Part shown: positions 29,047-37,380 of the stretch, one piece after another
Position numbering within the stretch: position 1 is the stretch's first letter
Layout of the letters: every line of letters begins with the position of its first letter
Sequence record: SRR31156797_2006
Length of the DNA stretch: 44,014 nt
Strand: one strand, 5' to 3'
Notes under the pieces: generated by a model
What the model saw: the letters and a program-made list of their open reading frames with translations, nothing else
Databases searched by the model: none
What the model was told of the DNA's origin: nothing
Position numbers and translations under genes: made by a program

Positions 29047-30033
29047 ATGATGGAAAATAACGGTTCAGACGATCACATCAGACCGCAACGGCTGGCCGAT
29101 TTTATCGGTCAGGACGATCTGCGCGACAACCTTGATGTCTTTATTCAGGCTGCGCGCGGGCGTGGCAATGCCATGGACCATGCCCTTTTCTACGGTAATC
29201 CCGGTCTGGGTAAGACCACCCTCGCAAGGATCATTGCTTCCGAGCTTGGTGTTAATCTTATTACTACTTCCGGTCCGGTTCTGGAGCGTAGTGGAGATCT
29301 CGCCGCCATCCTGACTAACCTGTCCCGTAACGACATTCTTTTCATCGACGAAATCCACCGTGTGCCTGCCAACGTAGAGGAAGTGCTCTATCCGGCCATG
29401 GAGGATTTCAATATAGACCTCATCATCGGGCAGGGACCCGCCGCCCGTACTGTAAAGATCGACCTTGAACCGTTCACTCTGGTCGGAGCAACAACTCGTT
29501 TAGGGTTGCTTACATCCCCGTTGCGTGACCGTTTCGGCTGCATTTTCCGTTTAGAATTTTATTCCCCCGAAGAATTGGCTCGCATTGTTACCCGCGCCGC
29601 GAGAATTTTTGATCTTAAAGTCACAGACGAAGGCGCGCTGATCATTGGCAGGCGTTCGCGCGGCACACCGCGTATCGCCAACCGCCTCCTGCGCAGGGTG
29701 CGAGATTTCGCCACCGTGCATGGCGATGGGGTCGTAGATGGCGAGCTCGCCGACATGGCCTTGAACAAGCTGGATGTTGATCCTCTTGGCTTGGATTACA
29801 TGGACCGCAAGATTCTTTCTATTTTGATAGACCAGTTCGGTGGTGGTCCTGTAGGCGTGAAGACAATCGCCGTTGCTTGTTCCGAGGAAGTACGCACCAT
29901 TGAGGAAATTTACGAGCCATACCTGATTCAGTGCGGTTTCTTGAAGCGTACCCCACGTGGACGTGTGGCGACCGCACGTGCTTACCAGCATCTCCAGAAA
30001 GTTGCTTCTGGGGGGCAGGGGAGTTTGTTTTAG
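29047..30033 (+). CDS. ruvB: Holliday junction branch migration helicase RuvB
   Basis: [43 protein letters not shown] and EPYLIQ..RTPRGR. Confidence 0.98.
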
Positions 30034-30064
30034 GTAGGGTTTTATTTGAGTTGATATTTTTGGG

Positions 30065-30101
30065 AAAGCCCCTTGCAGCGTTGCTGTGAGGGGCTTTTTT
30101 T
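30065..30101. terminator. Terminator after ruvB
   Basis: AAAGCCCCTTGCAGC..GCTGTGAGGGGCTTTTTTT. Confidence 0.8.
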
Positions 30102-30102
30102 A

Positions 30103-30840
30103 TTAATTGCAATAAAGGTGGGTTGTCCATTCGCCCCATGATTTGCTCGTAATTTTTGCTTGTTCAAATCCAAATTTTGATTTGCTGTTCTTTACTTTCG
30201 AATAAATATCCGTGTGATTTAGCTGCACGGCAGTTCCTTTGGTCTCTGCATGGTAGTAGAAAGTTTGATGCTTTGTTTTGGTTAATGATGCTGCCTCATG
30301 AGGAGACAATTCCCACCAACCATCTGTGATCCAATTGCCATTTAACTGTTTATATTGAAGTGCAATGTAAATATTTTTATCGCAGTGATTCTCAAAACAT
30401 ATTTTGTCATATTTAGCAGATGCAGCATTATTTTGTTGGGACTCCTCAATGATTTCTGCAACTAGGTCAGAGGTAAACCCCGGAGGAATAAAAGCTTTGT
30501 AGTCCCCCCACCCAAAATCAACAATGTTAAAATTATCATCAATTTCCATTTTTACTTCAAGCCACAATGGTCCATCACTCCACGAACTTCTAGCATGAAT
30601 TTTGAAAATTATTTCTTTGTTTCCATTGTCTTTAAAGCTGGTTTTTTCATACTTCCAATACCTGTACTTGGCTGTAGGCCAAGCTTTTTTAAGAATGACG
30701 TATGCAATACCATCAATGAAGCTGTTGGTTGCTTCGTCTTGTTCTTTGCATTGTGCTGAAAAGGTTAGCGAGAAAAAAACAATGAGAATTAAAACAGTGA
30801 GACGAATAAATTTTGGTTTCAATCTAGACACATTGACCAC
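30103..30840 (-). CDS. Exported protein with a C-terminal DUF1036-like domain
   Basis: Signal peptide; ICFENHCDKNIYIALQY...WITDGWWELSP..YYHAE; visibly AT-rich. Confidence 0.65.
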   Translation of the reverse strand: MVNVSRLKPKFIRLTVLILIVFFSLTFSAQCKEQDEATNSFIDGIAYVILKKAWPTAKYRYWKYEKTSFKDNGNKEIIFKIHARSSWSDGPLWLEVKMEIDDNFNIVDFGWGDYKAFIPPGFTSDLVAEIIEESQQNNAASAKYDKICFENHCDKNIYIALQYKQLNGNWITDGWWELSPHEAASLTKTKHQTFYYHAETKGTAVQLNHTDIYSKVKNSKSKFGFEQAKITSKSWGEWTTHLYCN

Positions 30841-30938
30841 TCCTATTTTACGTTTAATAGTCTATATGTTAGATTTAGTTTTGAAGTCAATGTGTACTAA
30901 GTGTTAGCATCTCGTTTTTTGGATTGTTGTTGACCAGA

Positions 30939-30984
30939 TTAAAAACCTCCCCCGCTCACCAAAGCAAGCGGGGGAGGTTTTTAA
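30939..30984. terminator. Terminator closing the fdhE-moaA-transposase-like unit
   Basis: TTAAAAACCTCCCCCGCT..AGCGGGGGAGGTTTTTAA perfect stem. Confidence 0.85.
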
Positions 30985-31015
30985 TTTAATCCCAATCGAA
31001 ATAGCTTAAAAATCC

Positions 31016-31942
31016 CTAATCCACGTCAGGAACAATCTTACAAATATAAGTAGTCAATAAATCGAACAAATCTTTCGAACGATTATTGAACCTGAATTCC
31101 AGTTCCTTCAAATATAAAGGAAAGCGATGCGGGGAAATACCCTTGTAACGCTTAAAACGCTGCCGTGCGAATTGCCAGAACTCTCCCCCTGATATTTCTA
31201 TGTGCGGGGTGATGTCCGGGTATTTTCGGATGTAATCCAGCGGCAGGGAATCATCTCCGCAGAGGATCAGGGAATCGTATTTCTGGTAGCGGTCGGTGTG
31301 GATGATGGACCCGTGCCGGACCAGCTTGAGGTGGAAGTTGTGGTTGAAGTGGAACACAGATTCCGCAGTGATGTTCTGCATTAAATCGATGAACACCCAG
31401 CCGTTCTTTTCCATTATTCCGAATACGGGGATGGTACCAGTTGTCTTCTTTGAAGGTACCCCGGTCAGTTTTTTGTTCTTGAGATGGGTGTGCAGCCCGG
31501 TTTCTGCACTGAGCAACTGCTGGGCATCGATGGCCTGCGCTAGGATTGCAAAGCGTAGGGCGGTGATGGCCTTGTAGGTGGCGTTGTAGGAAAGCTCCAG
31601 ATCAAGTGAAATTGCATGCGCGGTGTGATCTTCGGCGAACATCTGGATAAGGCGCACCCATTCGCGGGCGGAAAGTCCGCCGTTGTTGATCCAGCGGCCG
31701 CTGAAATCCTGAAAGGTGTACTTGCAGGAGGAACAGCGGTAGCGGTCACCGTTGAGATTGTAGAGCTTGTGCTCCCGGCAGCGGGGGCAGAAGGCTTTGC
31801 GGTCTCCCAAGGCTTTGTGCAGCAGAAATTTTCTGGCTTCCTCCTCAGAGGATGTCAGTCTTTCCAGCAATTCATCATGGCTTTCGGAAGCATTAGAGTC
31901 GGATTCTTTTATCCGCCTATGGACGACATCTGTGTCTCGCAT
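31016..31942 (-). CDS. IS1595-family transposase-derived protein (Zn ribbon + HTH + degenerate DDE domain), probably catalytically inactive
   Basis: FCPRC..RYRCSSC Zn ribbon, [21 protein letters not shown]...Y and FW.FARQRF..YKGIS...[15 protein letters not shown]; overlaps the moaA 3' end by 34 nt. Confidence 0.85.
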
Positions 31943-32901
31943 ACACCTTCACATCCTGATCTTTGTTCTAAAAGATGGTACCCCAGCGGTTTATCGATAG
32001 TTGCCTCGGCAATTACTTTGCGCAGGGCATCGTCATCGAGTTCGGGATTCCTTAAAATATCACGCAGCCCATATGTTTTGTCGGAAAAAAGACAGGTGCG
32101 CAGTTGACCGTCCGAGGTAATGCGCAGCCTATTGCAGGTGGCGCAGAAATGAGAGCTTACCGGGGAAATTAGGCCCAGTCTCCCTTTGCCGCTATCAATG
32201 GAGTACATGCGTGCGGGGCCATGGTTTTCCGGCCGTGCTTTTTCCCTTTTTAGCTCTGCATATTGCTGGGCCTGTTCGAGGATATCATCAGCGGACCAGA
32301 ATCTGCTGTCAGACTTGGTGTCATCACCCATGGGCATGAATTCGATGAAACGCATGTCGATGGAATTTTCGCTGGCAAAATCGATGAAAGAATTGAGTTC
32401 CTTATCGTTGATACCTTTCATGGCAACAGCATTGACCTTGACCCTGATCCCGGCTGAGAGACAGGCGGAAATGGAAGCAAGCACATCATTTAAATGATCG
32501 CGTCCGGTTACTTCCTTGAAGGTTTCCCGGTCGAGGGTATCGAGTGAAATATTCAGTCGGTTTACGCCGATTTTTTTCAGTTCCGGCACCAGTGGTTCAA
32601 TGAGTGTCCCGTTGGTGGTGATGCGCAAGTCCATTTCCGGGTGGCTGTTCATCACTTGCGAAATGAAATCCATGAATCCCTTGCGGGCAAAGGGTTCTCC
32701 CCCGGTGAGTCGCAGCTTGGAAATGTTCATGGAAGCAGCAAGGTCCACCAGACGCAGCATTTCTTCGTAGCGCAATATATCCGGGTGGGGGATGTGCTTG
32801 AAGTCTTTGGTTACGCAATACATGCAACGCAGGTTGCAACGGTCGGTAACGCTCAGCCGCAGGTAGTTAACCGTACGGCCTATCTTGTCGGTGAGTACCA
32901 T
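31909..32901 (-). CDS. moaA: GTP 3',8-cyclase (radical SAM)
   Basis: [48 protein letters not shown] and C-terminal MSSIGG. Confidence 0.97.
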
Positions 32902-32902
32902 T

Positions 32903-33844
32903 CTAGAACCCCCAGACGGATAGGGTGCCCCGGTTGTAACCTTCTTCCACTGCTACGAAGTCCAGCGGCAGAGATTCAAGGTCATTGAGCGCGGGGACGG
33001 AAATTTTGTCCACTTCCCGGAAATCTGTGGTTTTCATGTAGGTCTTGCATGAATCGCAGACATCTACACGGTACCCCGGTGCTTCTTCCACAGTGAAAAA
33101 TTTGAGGCTGTCCGCGTTGGTGTTATCGCAGTATGCACAGGCCATCCGGCGTACACGGTATTCGGTATGGCAGAAGGAACAGTTGGCGTAGCGGAAGCCT
33201 TGGTTGTGATGCAGGGTGTGCATGAAGGGTACGGAGCCGCAGATGGGACAGTGACCGTGGTTGCGCGGTGCGGGCTGCTCCAGTTCAAAATCAAGCTCGT
33301 CATTGTCGGACCGTTCGGAGGTGTCCGCCTGCTGATGGGGGAGCTTTTCTTCCAGTGCTGCGGCAACAGTCTTAATGGAAGGAGTCAGTGCGGACTGGAT
33401 GAGAAAGCTCAGGGTGCGTGGTGCTTCGGGCATTTTTTCCGCCCAGCCCATGAAGAAATCATCATTAGTTTCAAGGTAGGCCTTGAAAGCCTGTTTCAGG
33501 TCCAGTTCGTCGGATTTGATGCTTGCAATGATCAGTGCGGTGGCCTCGGAAATGGGACCTTCTTCCTTACCCACCAGTTCCGCTAACTCATTAATAAGTT
33601 TGCAGGCCTGATCGTAGTCGTAGGTGAAATCTTCACGAGCGAGCAGGGGGCGTCCTTGCAGGTTGGCATCGTCGGGAGCAAGATCCGTCGGAATGGTCGG
33701 GGAGGAGTGCTGCTGGGCTTCCAGCTGGATTGCGGCAACATTTGAAATTAAATTAACAAGCTCTTCCGGGAGAAAAGGCTTTTCCTTCAGCTCGGATATT
33801 TTTTTATCCAGCTGTTCTTTGGCACTGCTGTAATCAAAATTCAT
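32903..33844 (-). CDS. fdhE: Formate dehydrogenase accessory protein FdhE
   Basis: [16 protein letters not shown]...RMACAYC and [13 protein letters not shown] (four CxxC). Start is either ATG 33844 or GTG 33856. Confidence 0.9.
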
Positions 33845-34039
33845 TATAAAAAACACTCCTTAAGGGGAACCCGGCAGTAGGGTTAGCCGGGTTTGTTTCA
33901 TTCCTGTTAAAAAAAGCATATGCCTTAATAGCGGCAGCTGCATAGGAGTGCTAATTAATCACGTTTTGACACAAAGTCTAATCGATTATTTGAAAAAAAT
34001 ATTATGAATAAAATGATATAATTTAAATGTGCGGAAAGA

Positions 34040-34828
34040 TTATAACCCTTTGATCCGGCCCTGATCGTTGTAAACCCAGAATCCGGTTTTGCTGATATTA
34101 CCGATGAGGGTTATGCCGATTTTGCGGGCCAGTTCCACAGAAAAACTGGTTGCCACGGCAGTGGAAGCCAGTATGGGAACCCCGATGCGTACAGCTTTGA
34201 GCAGGATTTCCGAGGCTACGCGTCCGGTGGAGACGATCATTTTGCCGTCAGTGGGCACATCTTCAAGGAAGCACTGGCCGACAATCATATCGATGGCGTT
34301 GTGTCGCCCTATGTCTTCACGGAAGTAGAGCATTTCTTCCGGGGTGCATAAGGATGAATTATGGCAGCCGCGGGTCTTGTTATAAAGAGTGGAGCGCGAG
34401 TGCAATTCATTGGCGTGGGTCAGGATCTGTTCCGGGGTGACGATCAGTTCTGATTTGATGGTCCGCTTTGAAATGGTGGAAACATTGCGGCCGAAGTTGG
34501 TGCCCTTGCCGCAGCCGGAAGTAATGGAGTATTCGAGAACCCGACCTTTCCAAGGATCATGGCTGGTGCTGATATCTGCGATGATGCGGTCGTCATGTTC
34601 GGTGATCTTCAGGTCGGTTACCTGGTCACGTGAGGAAATATAGGCATCGGATTTCAGGAAACCCACGGCCAGATAATCCGGGTAACGGGCTGTGGTCAGC
34701 AGGGTCACTACTTCACGGCCGTTAAGGTTGATGGTCAAAGGTATTTCAAGGATGCTGCTGATCTCTTTTTCCTTGAATTCACCACCGCAATATTCTTTTA
34801 CTGTATAGCTGAAACTTTCTTTCATCAT
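34040..34828 (-). CDS. fdhD: Formate dehydrogenase accessory sulfurtransferase FdhD
   Basis: EIPLTINLNG, LAVGFL, TSGCG, TRGCH, REDIGRHNAID and STGRVASE. Confidence 0.95.
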   Translation of the reverse strand: MMKESFSYTVKEYCGGEFKEKEISSILEIPLTINLNGREVVTLLTTARYPDYLAVGFLKSDAYISSRDQVTDLKITEHDDRIIADISTSHDPWKGRVLEYSITSGCGKGTNFGRNVSTISKRTIKSELIVTPEQILTHANELHSRSTLYNKTRGCHNSSLCTPEEMLYFREDIGRHNAIDMIVGQCFLEDVPTDGKMIVSTGRVASEILLKAVRIGVPILASTAVATSFSVELARKIGITLIGNISKTGFWVYNDQGRIKGL

Positions 34829-34880: not shown

Positions 34881-35080
34881 GGCTTTAGTTTTTGCGTCTA
34901 TTTCAGCACACTTTTGGTGCAAAAATAGGTTAAGACTAAGAGTATAATTGTGCTCATATTGACATAGAGCGGTCTTTCTGGTCTACACCTACACTAGTCC
35001 AGCCTACTGTCTGGCGTGGTCTTAATTTGCGGATGATCTGGAATTTACGAATTTTAAACAGAGTTCTTTTTGGAGGAAAA

Positions 35081-35905
35081 ATGAAAAAACTTAAAGTATT
35101 GCTGCTTACTCTCGCTCTCGTTTCCCTGCTCGTTGCTCCGGGACTGGTAAAAGCTGAAACGCTGATGATGGCTACTACTACCAGTACAGATAACACCGGT
35201 CTGCTTGATGAACTTGCTCCCATGTTTGAAAAGGACACCGGCATTGAGCTGAAGTGGACTGCTGTAGGTACCGGTAAAGCTCTCAAGATGGGCCAGAACT
35301 GCGACGTAGATGTTCTTATGGTGCACGCTCCCGCAGCTGAAAAAAAATATGTTGATATGGGCGCACTCAAAGACCGCCGCGAAGTAATGTACAACGACTT
35401 CGTAATCATCGGTCCTGCTTCTGATCCCGCAGGTATTAAAGGTCTTCCGGTTGTGCAGGCTATGAAAGCTGTTGCTGAAGTAAAGGCTCCTTTTGTTAGT
35501 CGTGGCGACAACTCCGGTACCAACAAAAAAGAAATTTCTCTCTGGAAAGTAGCTGGTATGGCTGTTCCCGATAAAGCAGAATGGTACATCCAGACCGGTC
35601 AGGGCATGATCAAAAGTATCACTGTTGCTGAAGAGCGCGATGCATACATCATGACTGATCGCGGCACCTACATCAAATACAGCGCCAACAAGAACGGTTC
35701 TCCCGAACTGAAAGTACTGGTGGAAGGCGACAAGTCTCTCTTCAACCAGTACAGCGTACTGGCTGTTAACCCCAAAAACTGCAAGAGTGCCAAGTACGAA
35801 CTGGCAACCAAGTTCTCCGAGTGGATGGCTACTCCCAAAACCCAGAAAGCTATCGGCAATTTCAAGTTGCTCGGTAAAAAACTCTTCATTCCCAACGCTA
35901 AGTAA
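35081..35905 (+). CDS. tupA: Tungstate ABC transporter substrate-binding protein
   Basis: Signal peptide; ATTTST.NTGLL (TTTS signature), AVGTGKAL, MYNDFVIIGP..DPA, FVSRGDNSGT and DRGT; GGAGG RBS before ATG 35081. Confidence 0.93.
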   Translation: MKKLKVLLLTLALVSLLVAPGLVKAETLMMATTTSTDNTGLLDELAPMFEKDTGIELKWTAVGTGKALKMGQNCDVDVLMVHAPAAEKKYVDMGALKDRREVMYNDFVIIGPASDPAGIKGLPVVQAMKAVAEVKAPFVSRGDNSGTNKKEISLWKVAGMAVPDKAEWYIQTGQGMIKSITVAEERDAYIMTDRGTYIKYSANKNGSPELKVLVEGDKSLFNQYSVLAVNPKNCKSAKYELATKFSEWMATPKTQKAIGNFKLLGKKLFIPNAK

Positions 35906-35915
35906 ATCATGCTTT

Positions 35916-35946
35916 ATGAGTGGGGCTTCCATTAAGCTCCACTCAT
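35916..35946 (+). terminator. Intercistronic hairpin between tupA and tupB (partial terminator or mRNA stabiliser)
   Basis: ATGAGTGGGGCTT-CCATT-AAGCTCCACTCAT with only a weak U-tail. Confidence 0.55.
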
Positions 35947-36037
35947 TCTCCCCCTTTTATAATAAGTTTCGCTCTTGTTCTCTGTAAGCCCGTTTGGTAT
36001 TAATAGAATTGCCGTGAAAGGGAGGGCTTAAAACTAC

Positions 36038-36733
36038 ATGGATTTTATTTTAAACGGTTTCTGGCAGGCTTTTGTGCTACTCTTTTCCGCTGACCCGGAA
36101 ACATACTCCGCCATTTATACCACCGTCTGCGTGACGACCATTTCTATCAGTGCGACCTTGATTATAGGTGCGCCGCTGGGTTTTTTGCTCGGCTATCATG
36201 AATTTCCTGGCAAGAGGTGCTTGCGCCTTATTGCCGATACCATGCTTTCCTTTCCCACTGTTGTCATAGGTTTGCTCGTTTATGCCATGCTTTCCCGCAG
36301 AGGCCCCATGGGTGAAATGGAGCTTCTTTTCAGTGTGTCGGGCATAGCTGTGGGCCAGACCTTGCTTGGATTACCCATTGTTATTGCCATGATGGCTACA
36401 GCGGTAGAGAACCTTGATCTACGTCTTAAGCAGACTTTGCTCACTCTTGGTGCATCGCATGGGCAGATTTTGCGGACCATTCTCTGGGAAGCACGATACA
36501 GCCTTATCCTTGCTGCTGCTGCCGCTTACGGGCGTATTGTTTCCGAGATAGGTATTTCCATGATGGTCGGCGGAAATATCAAGTGGCATACCCGGACCAT
36601 TACTACTGCCATTGCCCTTGAAACAGGCAAGGGTGAGTTTTCCATGGGCATCGCACTTGGTCTCGTACTTATGATGATTGCTTTTGCGGTTAACTATTCC
36701 ATGTCCGGTGTCAGAAAAAGGGCGGGCCAGTAA
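36038..36733 (+). CDS. tupB: Tungstate ABC transporter permease
   Basis: PTVVIGLLVY..LSRRGP.G and YGRIVSEIGISMMVGGNIKWHTRTITTAIALET.KG. Confidence 0.93.
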   Translation: MDFILNGFWQAFVLLFSADPETYSAIYTTVCVTTISISATLIIGAPLGFLLGYHEFPGKRCLRLIADTMLSFPTVVIGLLVYAMLSRRGPMGEMELLFSVSGIAVGQTLLGLPIVIAMMATAVENLDLRLKQTLLTLGASHGQILRTILWEARYSLILAAAAAYGRIVSEIGISMMVGGNIKWHTRTITTAIALETGKGEFSMGIALGLVLMMIAFAVNYSMSGVRKRAGQ

Positions 36734-37380
36734 TGAAGGATTTGTTCAGGCTCGAGAATGTTTGCCAGCGGTATAATGGAAGGCAGGTCCTCTCTCTTCA
36801 GGATTTTTCAGTTGGTGAAGGGGCGATTGTCGGTTTGGCCGGTCATAACGGTAGCGGCAAGAGTACCCTCATGCGTATGCTCGCTTTTCTGGAAAGCCCG
36901 GATTCCGGTAAAATTTATTATGACGGCAGGGATGTTGAGGCCCCTGAGTTGAGCTTGCGCCGTGAAGTTACCATGCTTACGCAGGAGCCATATCTGCTCA
37001 AAAGGTCGGTGGAAGCAAATGTCACTTATGGCCTTGAACTTCGCGGTGAAAAAAATATTCACGACAGGGCTTGCGATTCCCTGATTCAGGTTGGTTTGGA
37101 CCCGGATAAATTTATGCACCGCAACTGGTTTGAGCTTTCCGGAGGGGAAGCGCAGAGGGTTGCCCTTGCCGCACGTCTGGTTTTGAATCCCCGGGTGCTG
37201 CTCCTTGATGAACCCACTGCCAGCCTTGATCTCGAATCCACGCAACTCATCCATGAGGCTTCGGTCTCTGCCCGCGAAGAACAAGGCACCACCCTTGTGA
37301 TTGTCAGCCACGACCATCTCTGGCTGGAAGAAGTTTCCGATACCATTTATCGACTGGAAAGCGGTCAGCTGGCCGGTTGA
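36733..37380 (+). CDS. tupC: Tungstate ABC transporter ATP-binding protein
   Basis: GHNGSGKST, LSGGEAQRVALAARL, LLDEPTA and VSHD; translationally coupled to tupB. Confidence 0.9.
   Translation: MKDLFRLENVCQRYNGRQVLSLQDFSVGEGAIVGLAGHNGSGKSTLMRMLAFLESPDSGKIYYDGRDVEAPELSLRREVTMLTQEPYLLKRSVEANVTYGLELRGEKNIHDRACDSLIQVGLDPDKFMHRNWFELSGGEAQRVALAARLVLNPRVLLLDEPTASLDLESTQLIHEASVSAREEQGTTLVIVSHDHLWLEEVSDTIYRLESGQLAG

Follow-up and report, generated by a model that had tools for sequence, protein, structure and literature searches.

A transposase-derived gene at the end of an FDH-maturation operon

The last gene of an fdhD-fdhE-moaA operon, carried by a 44,014-nucleotide stretch of sequence record SRR31156797_2006 (the whole of which we call the window), encodes a protein derived from the transposases of IS1595-family insertion sequences (IS). 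We use 'T-like' as a working name for this IS1595-derived gene, its protein and its family; databases label the gene 'transposase'. The other genes of the operon include those for maturation and accessory factors of formate dehydrogenase (FDH), and the features discussed below are collected in Table 1. An earlier note, made from the sequence alone, had described the gene as a domesticated, apparently catalytically dead transposase built into the fdhE-moaA operon.

Table 1. Features of the T-like gene, its operon and adjoining sequences in the window (aa, amino acids; ORF, open reading frame; HTH, helix-turn-helix)
Feature	Position	Strand	Basis
T-like gene, IS1595-derived, non-mobile	31016-31942	-	308-aa ORF; Pfam PF12762 77.3 bits, PF12760 31 bits
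Zn ribbon, residues 32-76 (C52, C55, C70, C73)	31715-31849	-	Pfam Zn_ribbon_IS1595; conservation of Cys
HTH, homeodomain-like, residues ~86-138 (K124, R130)	31529-31687	-	Helices of the AlphaFold2 (AF2) model; weak fold matches
DDE-derived core, residues 141-308; predicted docking face for a REC-STAS protein	31019-31522	-	Pfam match at residues 155-286; catalytic columns; model
moaA (GTP 3',8-cyclase), upstream in the same operon	31909-32901	-	TIGR02666 364.9 bits, cut-off 284
fdhE-like FDH accessory gene	32903-33856	-	Pfam FdhE_central and FdhE_C
fdhD (FDH-maturation sulfurtransferase), first gene of the operon	34040-34828	-	FdhD-NarQ 217.8 bits; TIGR00129 152 bits, cut-off 140.9
Genes similar to tupA, tupB and tupC, divergent from fdhD	35027-37380	+	Names from an earlier reading of the sequence alone; ORFs
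Intrinsic terminator hairpin closing the operon	30938-30985	.	Perfect 19-bp stem, 10-nt loop, T run; after the T-like stop codon
Candidate operator TGTCAA...GCACAATT, spacer between tupA and fdhD	34942-34966	-	Lead only
Second copy of the TGYCAAA heptamer, fdhD-fdhE spacer	33962-33974	-	Lead only

T-like is an IS1595 transposase that has been exapted by its host: the gene is fixed, occurs in a single copy and evolves under strong purifying selection. Its domestication, which the earlier note had put forward, is supported by copy number, by the lack of terminal repeats, by selection and by deeply conserved synteny. Copy number was assessed in related genomes. A search of five such genomes with PF12762 returned a single match in four; the fifth held the orthologue and one true IS. 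Genome G124 provides a contrast, with 15 near-identical IS copies of 222-224 aa (for example, at loci L048, L053 and L058) alongside a single T-like orthologue. We note that the short IS1595-family element of this genome has an intact D-D-N triad.

Ratios of nonsynonymous to synonymous substitution (dN/dS) were calculated by the Nei-Gojobori method between the window and six related loci (L001-L006). They are far below one for T-like (0.039-0.076), as the earlier note had anticipated for a domesticated gene, and lie in the range of those of fdhE (0.054-0.156), fdhD (0.024-0.101) and moaA (0.044-0.087 in five of the six loci, dS being saturated for L005). Constraint is strongest in the DDE-derived part (0.007-0.036 over those five of the six comparisons that gave a finite dS) and weakest at the N terminus (0.13-0.23). 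Across L001-L009, identity of the T-like protein declines in parallel with that of the adjacent genes. The gene keeps the same position in ten Maridesulfovibrio-type loci, and this position is conserved across genera.

The immediate sequence context agrees with what the earlier note had read from it. The T-like ATG at 31942 lies 34 nt within the end of moaA (31909-32901), with an AGGA 10 nt upstream of it. The ORF is intact and its G+C content (0.46-0.54) matches that of moaA and fdhE, against 0.36-0.39 in the downstream DNA at 30000-31000. Past the T-like stop codon, the operon is closed by a perfect hairpin followed by a T run. The stretch 30700-32200 contains no inverted repeats other than this terminator hairpin and one internal palindrome, and none that flanks the ORF.

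The protein retains the domain order of IS1595 transposases, and all the motifs quoted in the earlier note were located in it: CPRC at residues 52-55, CSSC at 70-73, SAETGLH at 145-151, IHTD at 214-217, the stretch of the last catalytic motif at 247-256 and the C-terminal tail at 277-288. Pfam DDE_Tnp_IS1595 (PF12762) matches residues 155-286 well above its cut-off of 27 bits; the match spans positions 22-153 of the 153 in the hidden Markov model (HMM), so that the segment with the first catalytic Asp is unmatched. Zn_ribbon_IS1595 (PF12760, cut-off 25.4 bits) matches residues 32-76. The score against NCBIfam transpos_IS1595, 40.2 bits, falls under the cut-off of 75. Pfam and NCBIfam scans at E<=0.1 detected no Mop/TOBE or ModE-like domain for binding molybdenum or tungsten (Mo/W) in the protein.

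The AF2 model of T-like is confident (predicted local distance difference test, pLDDT, 92.2; predicted template modelling score, pTM, 0.89) and places helices in the HTH region at residues 92-103, 108-115 and 119-135. Searches with the full model gave no match in the Protein Data Bank at E<=0.001 with Foldseek, and nothing reaching Z>=5 with VIA-align. Residues 86-138 gave weak VIA-align matches (Z 4.0-4.7) to homeodomain, Myb and transposase DNA-binding domains, among them 1du0 (Z 4.5, root mean square deviation (rmsd) 1.6 over 47 residues), 1tc3 (Z 4.2) and 7s03 (Z 4.1). The C-terminal domain, modelled separately, reached a pLDDT of 87.3. The top fold match of this isolated core was the Rous sarcoma virus integrase core 4fw1 (Z 3.0, rmsd 7.8 over 89 residues), followed by other integrase cores and the ISCth4 transposase at Z 2.4-2.9; such matches are compatible with a remote RNase-H-like core and are not evidence for one.

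To locate the catalytic columns we aligned the protein first to five true IS1595 transposases of related genomes and then to nine representatives with an intact D-D-N triad. The window protein has H151, D217 and E249 in these columns. Judged from the alignment, clear loss is limited to the first Asp, D217 and E249 being retained; E249 is acidic where the nearest live relatives carry Asn. The label 'catalytically dead' is too strong for the third motif of this protein, which the earlier note had counted as lost. In a family set of 78 proteins (the window protein and those of 77 loci) the columns vary freely: the first holds D in 13 proteins, G in 35 and H in 11; the second D in 50, A in 16, G in 6 and N in 4; the third D in 46, E in 16 and a gap in 13. 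All 14 live relatives examined carry D-D-N. Other residues of the family hardly vary: the four Cys of the Zn ribbon are present in 77 of 78 proteins, R130, E280 and N286 in all 78 and K124 in 76, and the invariant columns of an 82-sequence alignment are C52, C55, C70, C73, R130 and E280. On this alignment evidence, catalysis is not the property conserved across the family.

Conservation beside formate dehydrogenase genes

A word-based search returned 532 T-like homologues; among the top 120, those with a name all come from Desulfovibrionaceae, mostly on one contig each. In a sample of 201 genomes from this family, to which the related genome G001 belongs, 122 have a match at E<=1e-5: 108 at E<=1e-50, which we take as the tamed family, and 14 with weak, IS-like matches. 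Just nine genomes match at E<=1e-20 in a 301-genome sample of the phylum. The representative library contains 68 clusters matching T-like at E<=1e-30 and 1113 at E<=0.001. In a tree, a long branch separates the T-like family from five true IS sequences. When more representatives are included, intact D-D-N proteins lie near the root and every FDH-linked protein lies deeper.

To describe the gene's surroundings we assembled 57 orthologue loci, comprising 17 named loci plus another 40, each 16.8 kb long and taken around the best match in a diverse set of genomes. They were queried by tblastn with the window proteins and with Pfam-verified FdhA, FdhB, binding protein, histidine kinase and REC-STAS regulator (the last three are described below). 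At least one of moaA, fdhE, fdhD and fdhA is found within 8 kb of T-like in 56 of the 57 loci, down to 38% identity, which confirms the conserved linkage to fdh and moa genes expected by the earlier note; the exception is L015, whose sequence stops inside fdhA. The fdhA gene lies downstream on the same strand in 41 loci, in 40 of them within 1.2 kb. Directly upstream of T-like stands moaA in 28 loci and fdhE in nine. The usual order is fdhE, an fdhD-like gene, moaA, T-like, a gap of about 350-500 nt, fdhA and fdhB. Where neither moaA nor fdhE is adjacent (for example, in L080, L081, L087, L090, L106 and the Halodesulfovibrio loci), T-like still lies directly upstream of fdhAB.

The layout of the window, with no adjacent fdhAB, is that of Maridesulfovibrio (L001-L009, L078). 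The description of the gene as built into the fdhE-moaA operon holds for this lineage only. T-like of most other genera either has maturation genes on one side and fdhAB on the other, or lies immediately before fdhAB with neither moaA nor fdhE next to it. Its tightest association is thus with the FDH enzyme genes, and with the sensor gene set described below, rather than with cofactor synthesis. The T-like family, in several paralogous clades, has been kept across the Desulfovibrionaceae beside periplasmic FDH genes. In single genomes, the moaA of L103, the fdhA of L108 and the T-like gene of L126 are split into at least two tblastn pieces, which could stem from frameshifts or assembly errors.

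Many genomes hold two to four further members of the family, at 28-42% identity. FDH genes adjoin 13 of 20 loci fetched as lower-identity matches (one of the 13, L126, proved to be an orthologue), in three arrangements: upstream of a second fdhAB (L119, L121, L125), divergent from an fdhAB-fdhE cluster (L124, L127-L132) or after fdhAB-fdhE-fdhD (L122, L123). One member of 28% identity stands in a different row of genes (L135:7276-10919), with a NIR_SIR gene, T-like, a NapC/NirT cytochrome and a multihaem cytochrome, and this row hints that the T-like family may also serve other respiratory operons. A clade of eleven paralogue loci (L118, L120, L122-L124, L127-L132) is always next to a gene for a protein of 117-139 aa (for example, L127:9279-9695, plus strand). 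This neighbor consists of a LysR/ModE-type HTH_1 domain only and is present even at the two loci of the clade that lack FDH genes.

One orthologue belongs to a model strain. The protein of L082 is identical letter for letter to AAS95065.1 (Q72EJ4), annotated 'transposase, putative', of Nitratidesulfovibrio vulgaris Hildenborough. The gene order there is moaA, regulator, kinase, binding protein, T-like, a gene for a 796-aa acyl-CoA-ligase-like protein, a small ORF, fdhA and fdhB. The ligase-like gene (ADP-forming type; L082:9015-11405, minus strand) lies on the opposite strand and stretches the gap between T-like and the small ORF to about 3 kb. Excerpts of published work give moaA as DVU0580 (PMC10102598), name 'fdh1; DVU0586-0588' (preprint 10.1101/2022.01.18.476765) and report a raised DVU0586 transcript in biofilms (PMC3431258). 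Combined with the gene order of L082, these published tags point to DVU0584 as the probable tag of T-like and to DVU0586, in the 'fdh1' operon, as the probable tag of the small ORF. Neither DVU0584 nor DVU0581-0583 was found named in the papers searched. Among the publications found, judged in part by their abstracts, none describes the T-like gene, and reports of domesticated IS1595-type transposases are eukaryotic (ciliate, Merlin) or unrelated. The G20 fitness paper has none of the terms sought for this gene system.

In the window's lineage, the tupABC-like genes beside the fdhD operon are conserved across L001-L009. On the other side, the low-GC stretch at 30000-31000 (0.36-0.39 against about 0.5) lies between the operon terminator and ruvB and contains a 245-aa ORF (30103-30840, minus strand) with a weak match to DUF1036. 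The distance from T-like to ruvB differs among L001-L009, so the spot between the two genes seems to accept variable DNA.

A predicted signaling partner and possible targets

Beside T-like in 29 of the 57 orthologue loci lies a set of three genes (for example, L079:9069-13057 and L140:4503-8487), which encode a periplasmic binding protein (Peripla_BP_6), a histidine kinase with sCache and PAS domains and a response regulator. We call them the sensor set. According to Pfam, the regulator consists of REC and STAS domains only and has no DNA-binding domain. We recorded a phyletic profile of this regulator (E<=1e-35) and of the T-like family (E<=1e-50) in the 201 genomes: 104 have both, four have T-like only, none has the regulator only and 93 have neither.

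We then modeled the window T-like protein together with the REC-STAS protein of the related genome G001, using custom alignments. The interface score ipSAE (interaction prediction score from aligned errors) was 0.77, 0.79 and 0.78, and the best of three controls scored 0.00. The mark applied to this score is reached by 58 of 80 solved complexes and two of 110 mismatched pairs, a calibration that is rough only, as custom alignments were used here. The runs share at least 94% of their contacts, with a partner pLDDT of at least 85. The model supports binding of T-like to the REC-STAS protein; it does not show it.

The predicted interface on T-like (residues 136-142, 177-190, 199-205 and 217-222) covers the former active-site face. 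Several of its residues are kept in the 78 family proteins, namely D139 (77), A140 (73), D186 (74), F199 (70) and L205 (76). They are not conserved in the 14 live IS transposases, and an N202-F203 insertion is missing from all 14. On the regulator, the predicted interface involves a loop of the STAS domain, in which N183, G184 and A185 are invariant and S181 nearly so, and the alpha4-beta5-alpha5 face of the REC domain.

In 43 of 45 same-strand loci, the interval between T-like and fdhA contains a small ORF of about 65-120 aa (for example, L080:9015-9230 and L082:11673-12005, both on the plus strand). Its product has an N-terminal PF.GLG and, in most loci, a C-terminal LGREIRGR whose coding sequence stops some 28 nt ahead of fdhA. 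The small ORF has no match among Pfam or NCBIfam families, and an HMM built from it found no copy in the window, at the fdhA loci of G001 or in the lower-identity loci L118-L137. A 10-mer 'motif', CCGGCCTGGG, was rejected as it is coding sequence of this small ORF. Upstream of the small ORF, a k-mer search returned chiefly T runs and a sigma-70-like promoter, which, by eye, immediately follows the T-like stop codon in several loci.

The same upstream regions are enriched in the heptamer TG[TC]CAAA, which occurs at 2.22 per kb in 43 regions against 0.26 per kb in whole loci (about 8-fold). It is found in 19 of the 43 loci upstream of the small ORF-fdhAB operon, often as pairs 23 nt apart in direct or inverted orientation. 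Conserved elements related to it are present in the two spacers of the window operon (Table 1). The core of the element between tupA and fdhD is conserved in all ten aligned Maridesulfovibrio sequences, and a similar element precedes the small ORF-fdhAB operon in L089, L092 and L094. The heptamer could also belong to another regulator.

We propose that T-like is the DNA-binding output of FDH regulation and is signaled to through the REC-STAS protein, a reading of sequence data and structural models to which we give about an even chance. The Zn ribbon and HTH would have kept their capacity to bind DNA, and T-like would regulate FDH genes. Its target in most genera would be the small ORF-fdhA-fdhB operon immediately downstream. 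For the window's genus, we would expect it to act on the fdhD-fdhE-moaA operon, of which T-like is the last gene, and probably on the unlinked fdhAB loci too. The signal, perhaps formate or a metal oxyanion, would be perceived by the periplasmic binding protein and the histidine kinase, leading to phosphorylation of the REC-STAS protein. The STAS loop would then bind or release T-like, whose former catalytic core would have been remade as a docking surface, and so switch its action on promoters. A more detailed version would be a novel type of signal output in Desulfovibrionaceae, in which the STAS loop of a regulator lacking any DNA-binding domain docks in the old active site of a dead transposase, Zn ribbon and HTH switch FDH operons, and one paralogue serves each FDH isoenzyme; we rate this version slightly below an even chance.

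Several observations weigh against this proposal. Hundreds of kilobases separate T-like, the sensor set and the two fdhAB loci from one another in the window's genus; the positions in G001 are 2.04 and 2.97 Mb for the two full-length fdhA genes, 1.14 Mb for the sensor set and 3.24 Mb for T-like. Some family members (L118, L120, L133-L137, L142-L144) have no FDH genes nearby, seven of them (L118, L120, L133-L137) having none within 8 kb, and the paralogue clade described above adjoins the HTH_1 protein, not a REC-STAS gene. Shared ancestry of the genomes may generate much of the co-occurrence of T-like and regulator. The complex is a prediction, with the regulator taken from a related genome, and the fold-match scores of the HTH fall under the level at which a match stands out. 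Motif searches found no clear operator, the enriched TGYCAAA being a candidate only. Finally, 12 of the 78 family members retain D-D-D in the catalytic columns, which leaves room for residual DNA processing in some lineages.

The strongest competing explanation, unlikely in our view yet deserving serious attention, keeps the DNA-binding role and drops the signaling partner. T-like would regulate FDH and Mo/W-cofactor genes alone or with another partner, such as the ModE-N-type HTH_1 protein, and the link to the REC-STAS regulator would reflect co-inheritance; the remodeled core might then itself sense tungstate, molybdate or another ligand. The same data on linkage and conservation support this explanation. 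It also draws on the arrangement in Maridesulfovibrio, where T-like shares an operon with fdhD, fdhE and moaA, divergent from tupABC, and the sensor set is distant, on the eleven loci that pair a paralogue with an HTH_1-only protein, and on the parallel that the earlier note drew with the regulator TunR. However, no metal-binding or Mop/TOBE domain was detected in T-like, the REC-STAS model passes clearly and does so on conserved residues specific to the family, and none of the 104 genomes with the REC-STAS regulator lacks T-like.

Alternatively, T-like may be a non-regulatory accessory or maturation factor of FDH, for instance a scaffold or chaperone acting with FdhD, FdhE and MoaA, whose DNA-binding parts would have been reused for contacts with protein or RNA. 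It ends a maturation operon in the window and directly follows moaA in 28 of 57 loci, and the DDE-derived core, not the N terminus, is its most constrained part. We nevertheless find this improbable. The Cys of the Zn ribbon, K124 and R130 are essentially invariant; nine of the 40 further loci (L080, L081, L087, L088, L090, L091, L106, L107, L114) keep T-like upstream of fdhAB with no adjacent maturation gene; several paralogues are placed divergently, as regulators often are; and the predicted partner is a signaling protein.

It is far less probable still that site-specific DNA cutting or recombination has been retained in some lineages, for example as a DNA switch at FDH loci. The 12 D-D-D proteins, for which 'catalytically dead' is too strong a term, and the D217 and E249 of the window protein would fit such an activity, but the first Asp is gone in 65 of 78 proteins while the rest of the protein is equally constrained, no inverted repeats flank the gene and the surrounding gene order is stable across genera. 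As for an ordinary IS1595 insertion, active or newly decayed, that came to lie after moaA by chance, the Pfam transposase thresholds that T-like passes and its 'transposase' label in databases are outweighed by its single copy in related genomes, its same position across genera down to 38% identity, its dN/dS of 0.04-0.08, its lack of terminal repeats, its score under the NCBIfam cut-off and the loss of the first catalytic Asp, which together refute this explanation.

It has long been known that sulfate reducers choose among FDH isoenzymes according to conditions; should the more detailed version of our proposal be correct, T-like could be the regulator so far missing from this picture. If the pairing with the REC-STAS regulator is real, a full candidate path for FDH control would run from binding protein to kinase, REC-STAS regulator, T-like and promoter, and the genes of this candidate pathway adjoin one another in a model strain amenable to genetics. 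Desulfovibrio FdhAB, a W/Mo-selenocysteine enzyme, is presented in the literature as a leading catalyst of CO2 reduction. With its 'transposase' label, the T-like gene can be overlooked in studies of FDH loci. To our knowledge, exapted transposases acting as regulators are well documented in eukaryotes and rare in bacteria; T-like would offer a whole family with paralogues, conserved at the family level, beside an enzyme of wide interest.

Comparison with known systems

T-like shares with the transposases of the IS1595 family a Zn ribbon, an HTH, a DDE-type core and a C-terminal LKE.E.RFN, in the same order. The nearest live D-D-N members (P0144, P0149, P0153 and six others) are 29-39% identical to it. 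Unlike in IS1595 elements, the first Asp is lost (H151), the catalytic columns are variable and inverted ends are absent. The gene is present in one copy per genome, at a fixed place and with a dN/dS like that of its housekeeping neighbors, and the former active-site face of the protein has gained newly conserved residues and an insertion of two residues.

Transposase-derived regulators include plant FHY3/FAR1, which arose from Mutator-like elements, and bacterial TldR, which arose from TnpB. As in these cases, T-like appears, from its sequence, to be a mobile-element enzyme retained for its DNA-binding part after mobility was lost. It differs from them in being a bacterial protein from a different transposase superfamily, in its expansion into paralogues, many of them near an FDH cluster, and in the predicted signal borne by a STAS domain.

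Closer in physiology is TunR, reportedly described by Kazakov and colleagues in 2013 as a regulator of sulfate reducers that responds to tungstate and has a DNA-binding domain of the XerC/XerD type. Both proteins belong to the same organisms and to the physiology of W/Mo enzymes, and in both a DNA-recombination protein would have been reused as a regulator, as we propose for T-like. TunR derives from a tyrosine recombinase and has its own ModE-like sensor domain; T-like, in contrast, is DDE-derived, and a sensor domain was not detected in it.

The predicted signaling step recalls partner switching by STAS proteins. In the SpoIIAA-SpoIIAB and RsbV-RsbW pairs, a STAS loop controlled by phosphorylation binds the partner. 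Like the SpoIIAA and RsbV modules, the STAS domain of the REC-STAS regulator has a conserved loop through which, in our model, it is predicted to bind its partner. Unlike in those modules, this STAS domain is fused to a two-component receiver, and in the prediction a dead transposase takes the place of the anti-sigma kinase as its partner.

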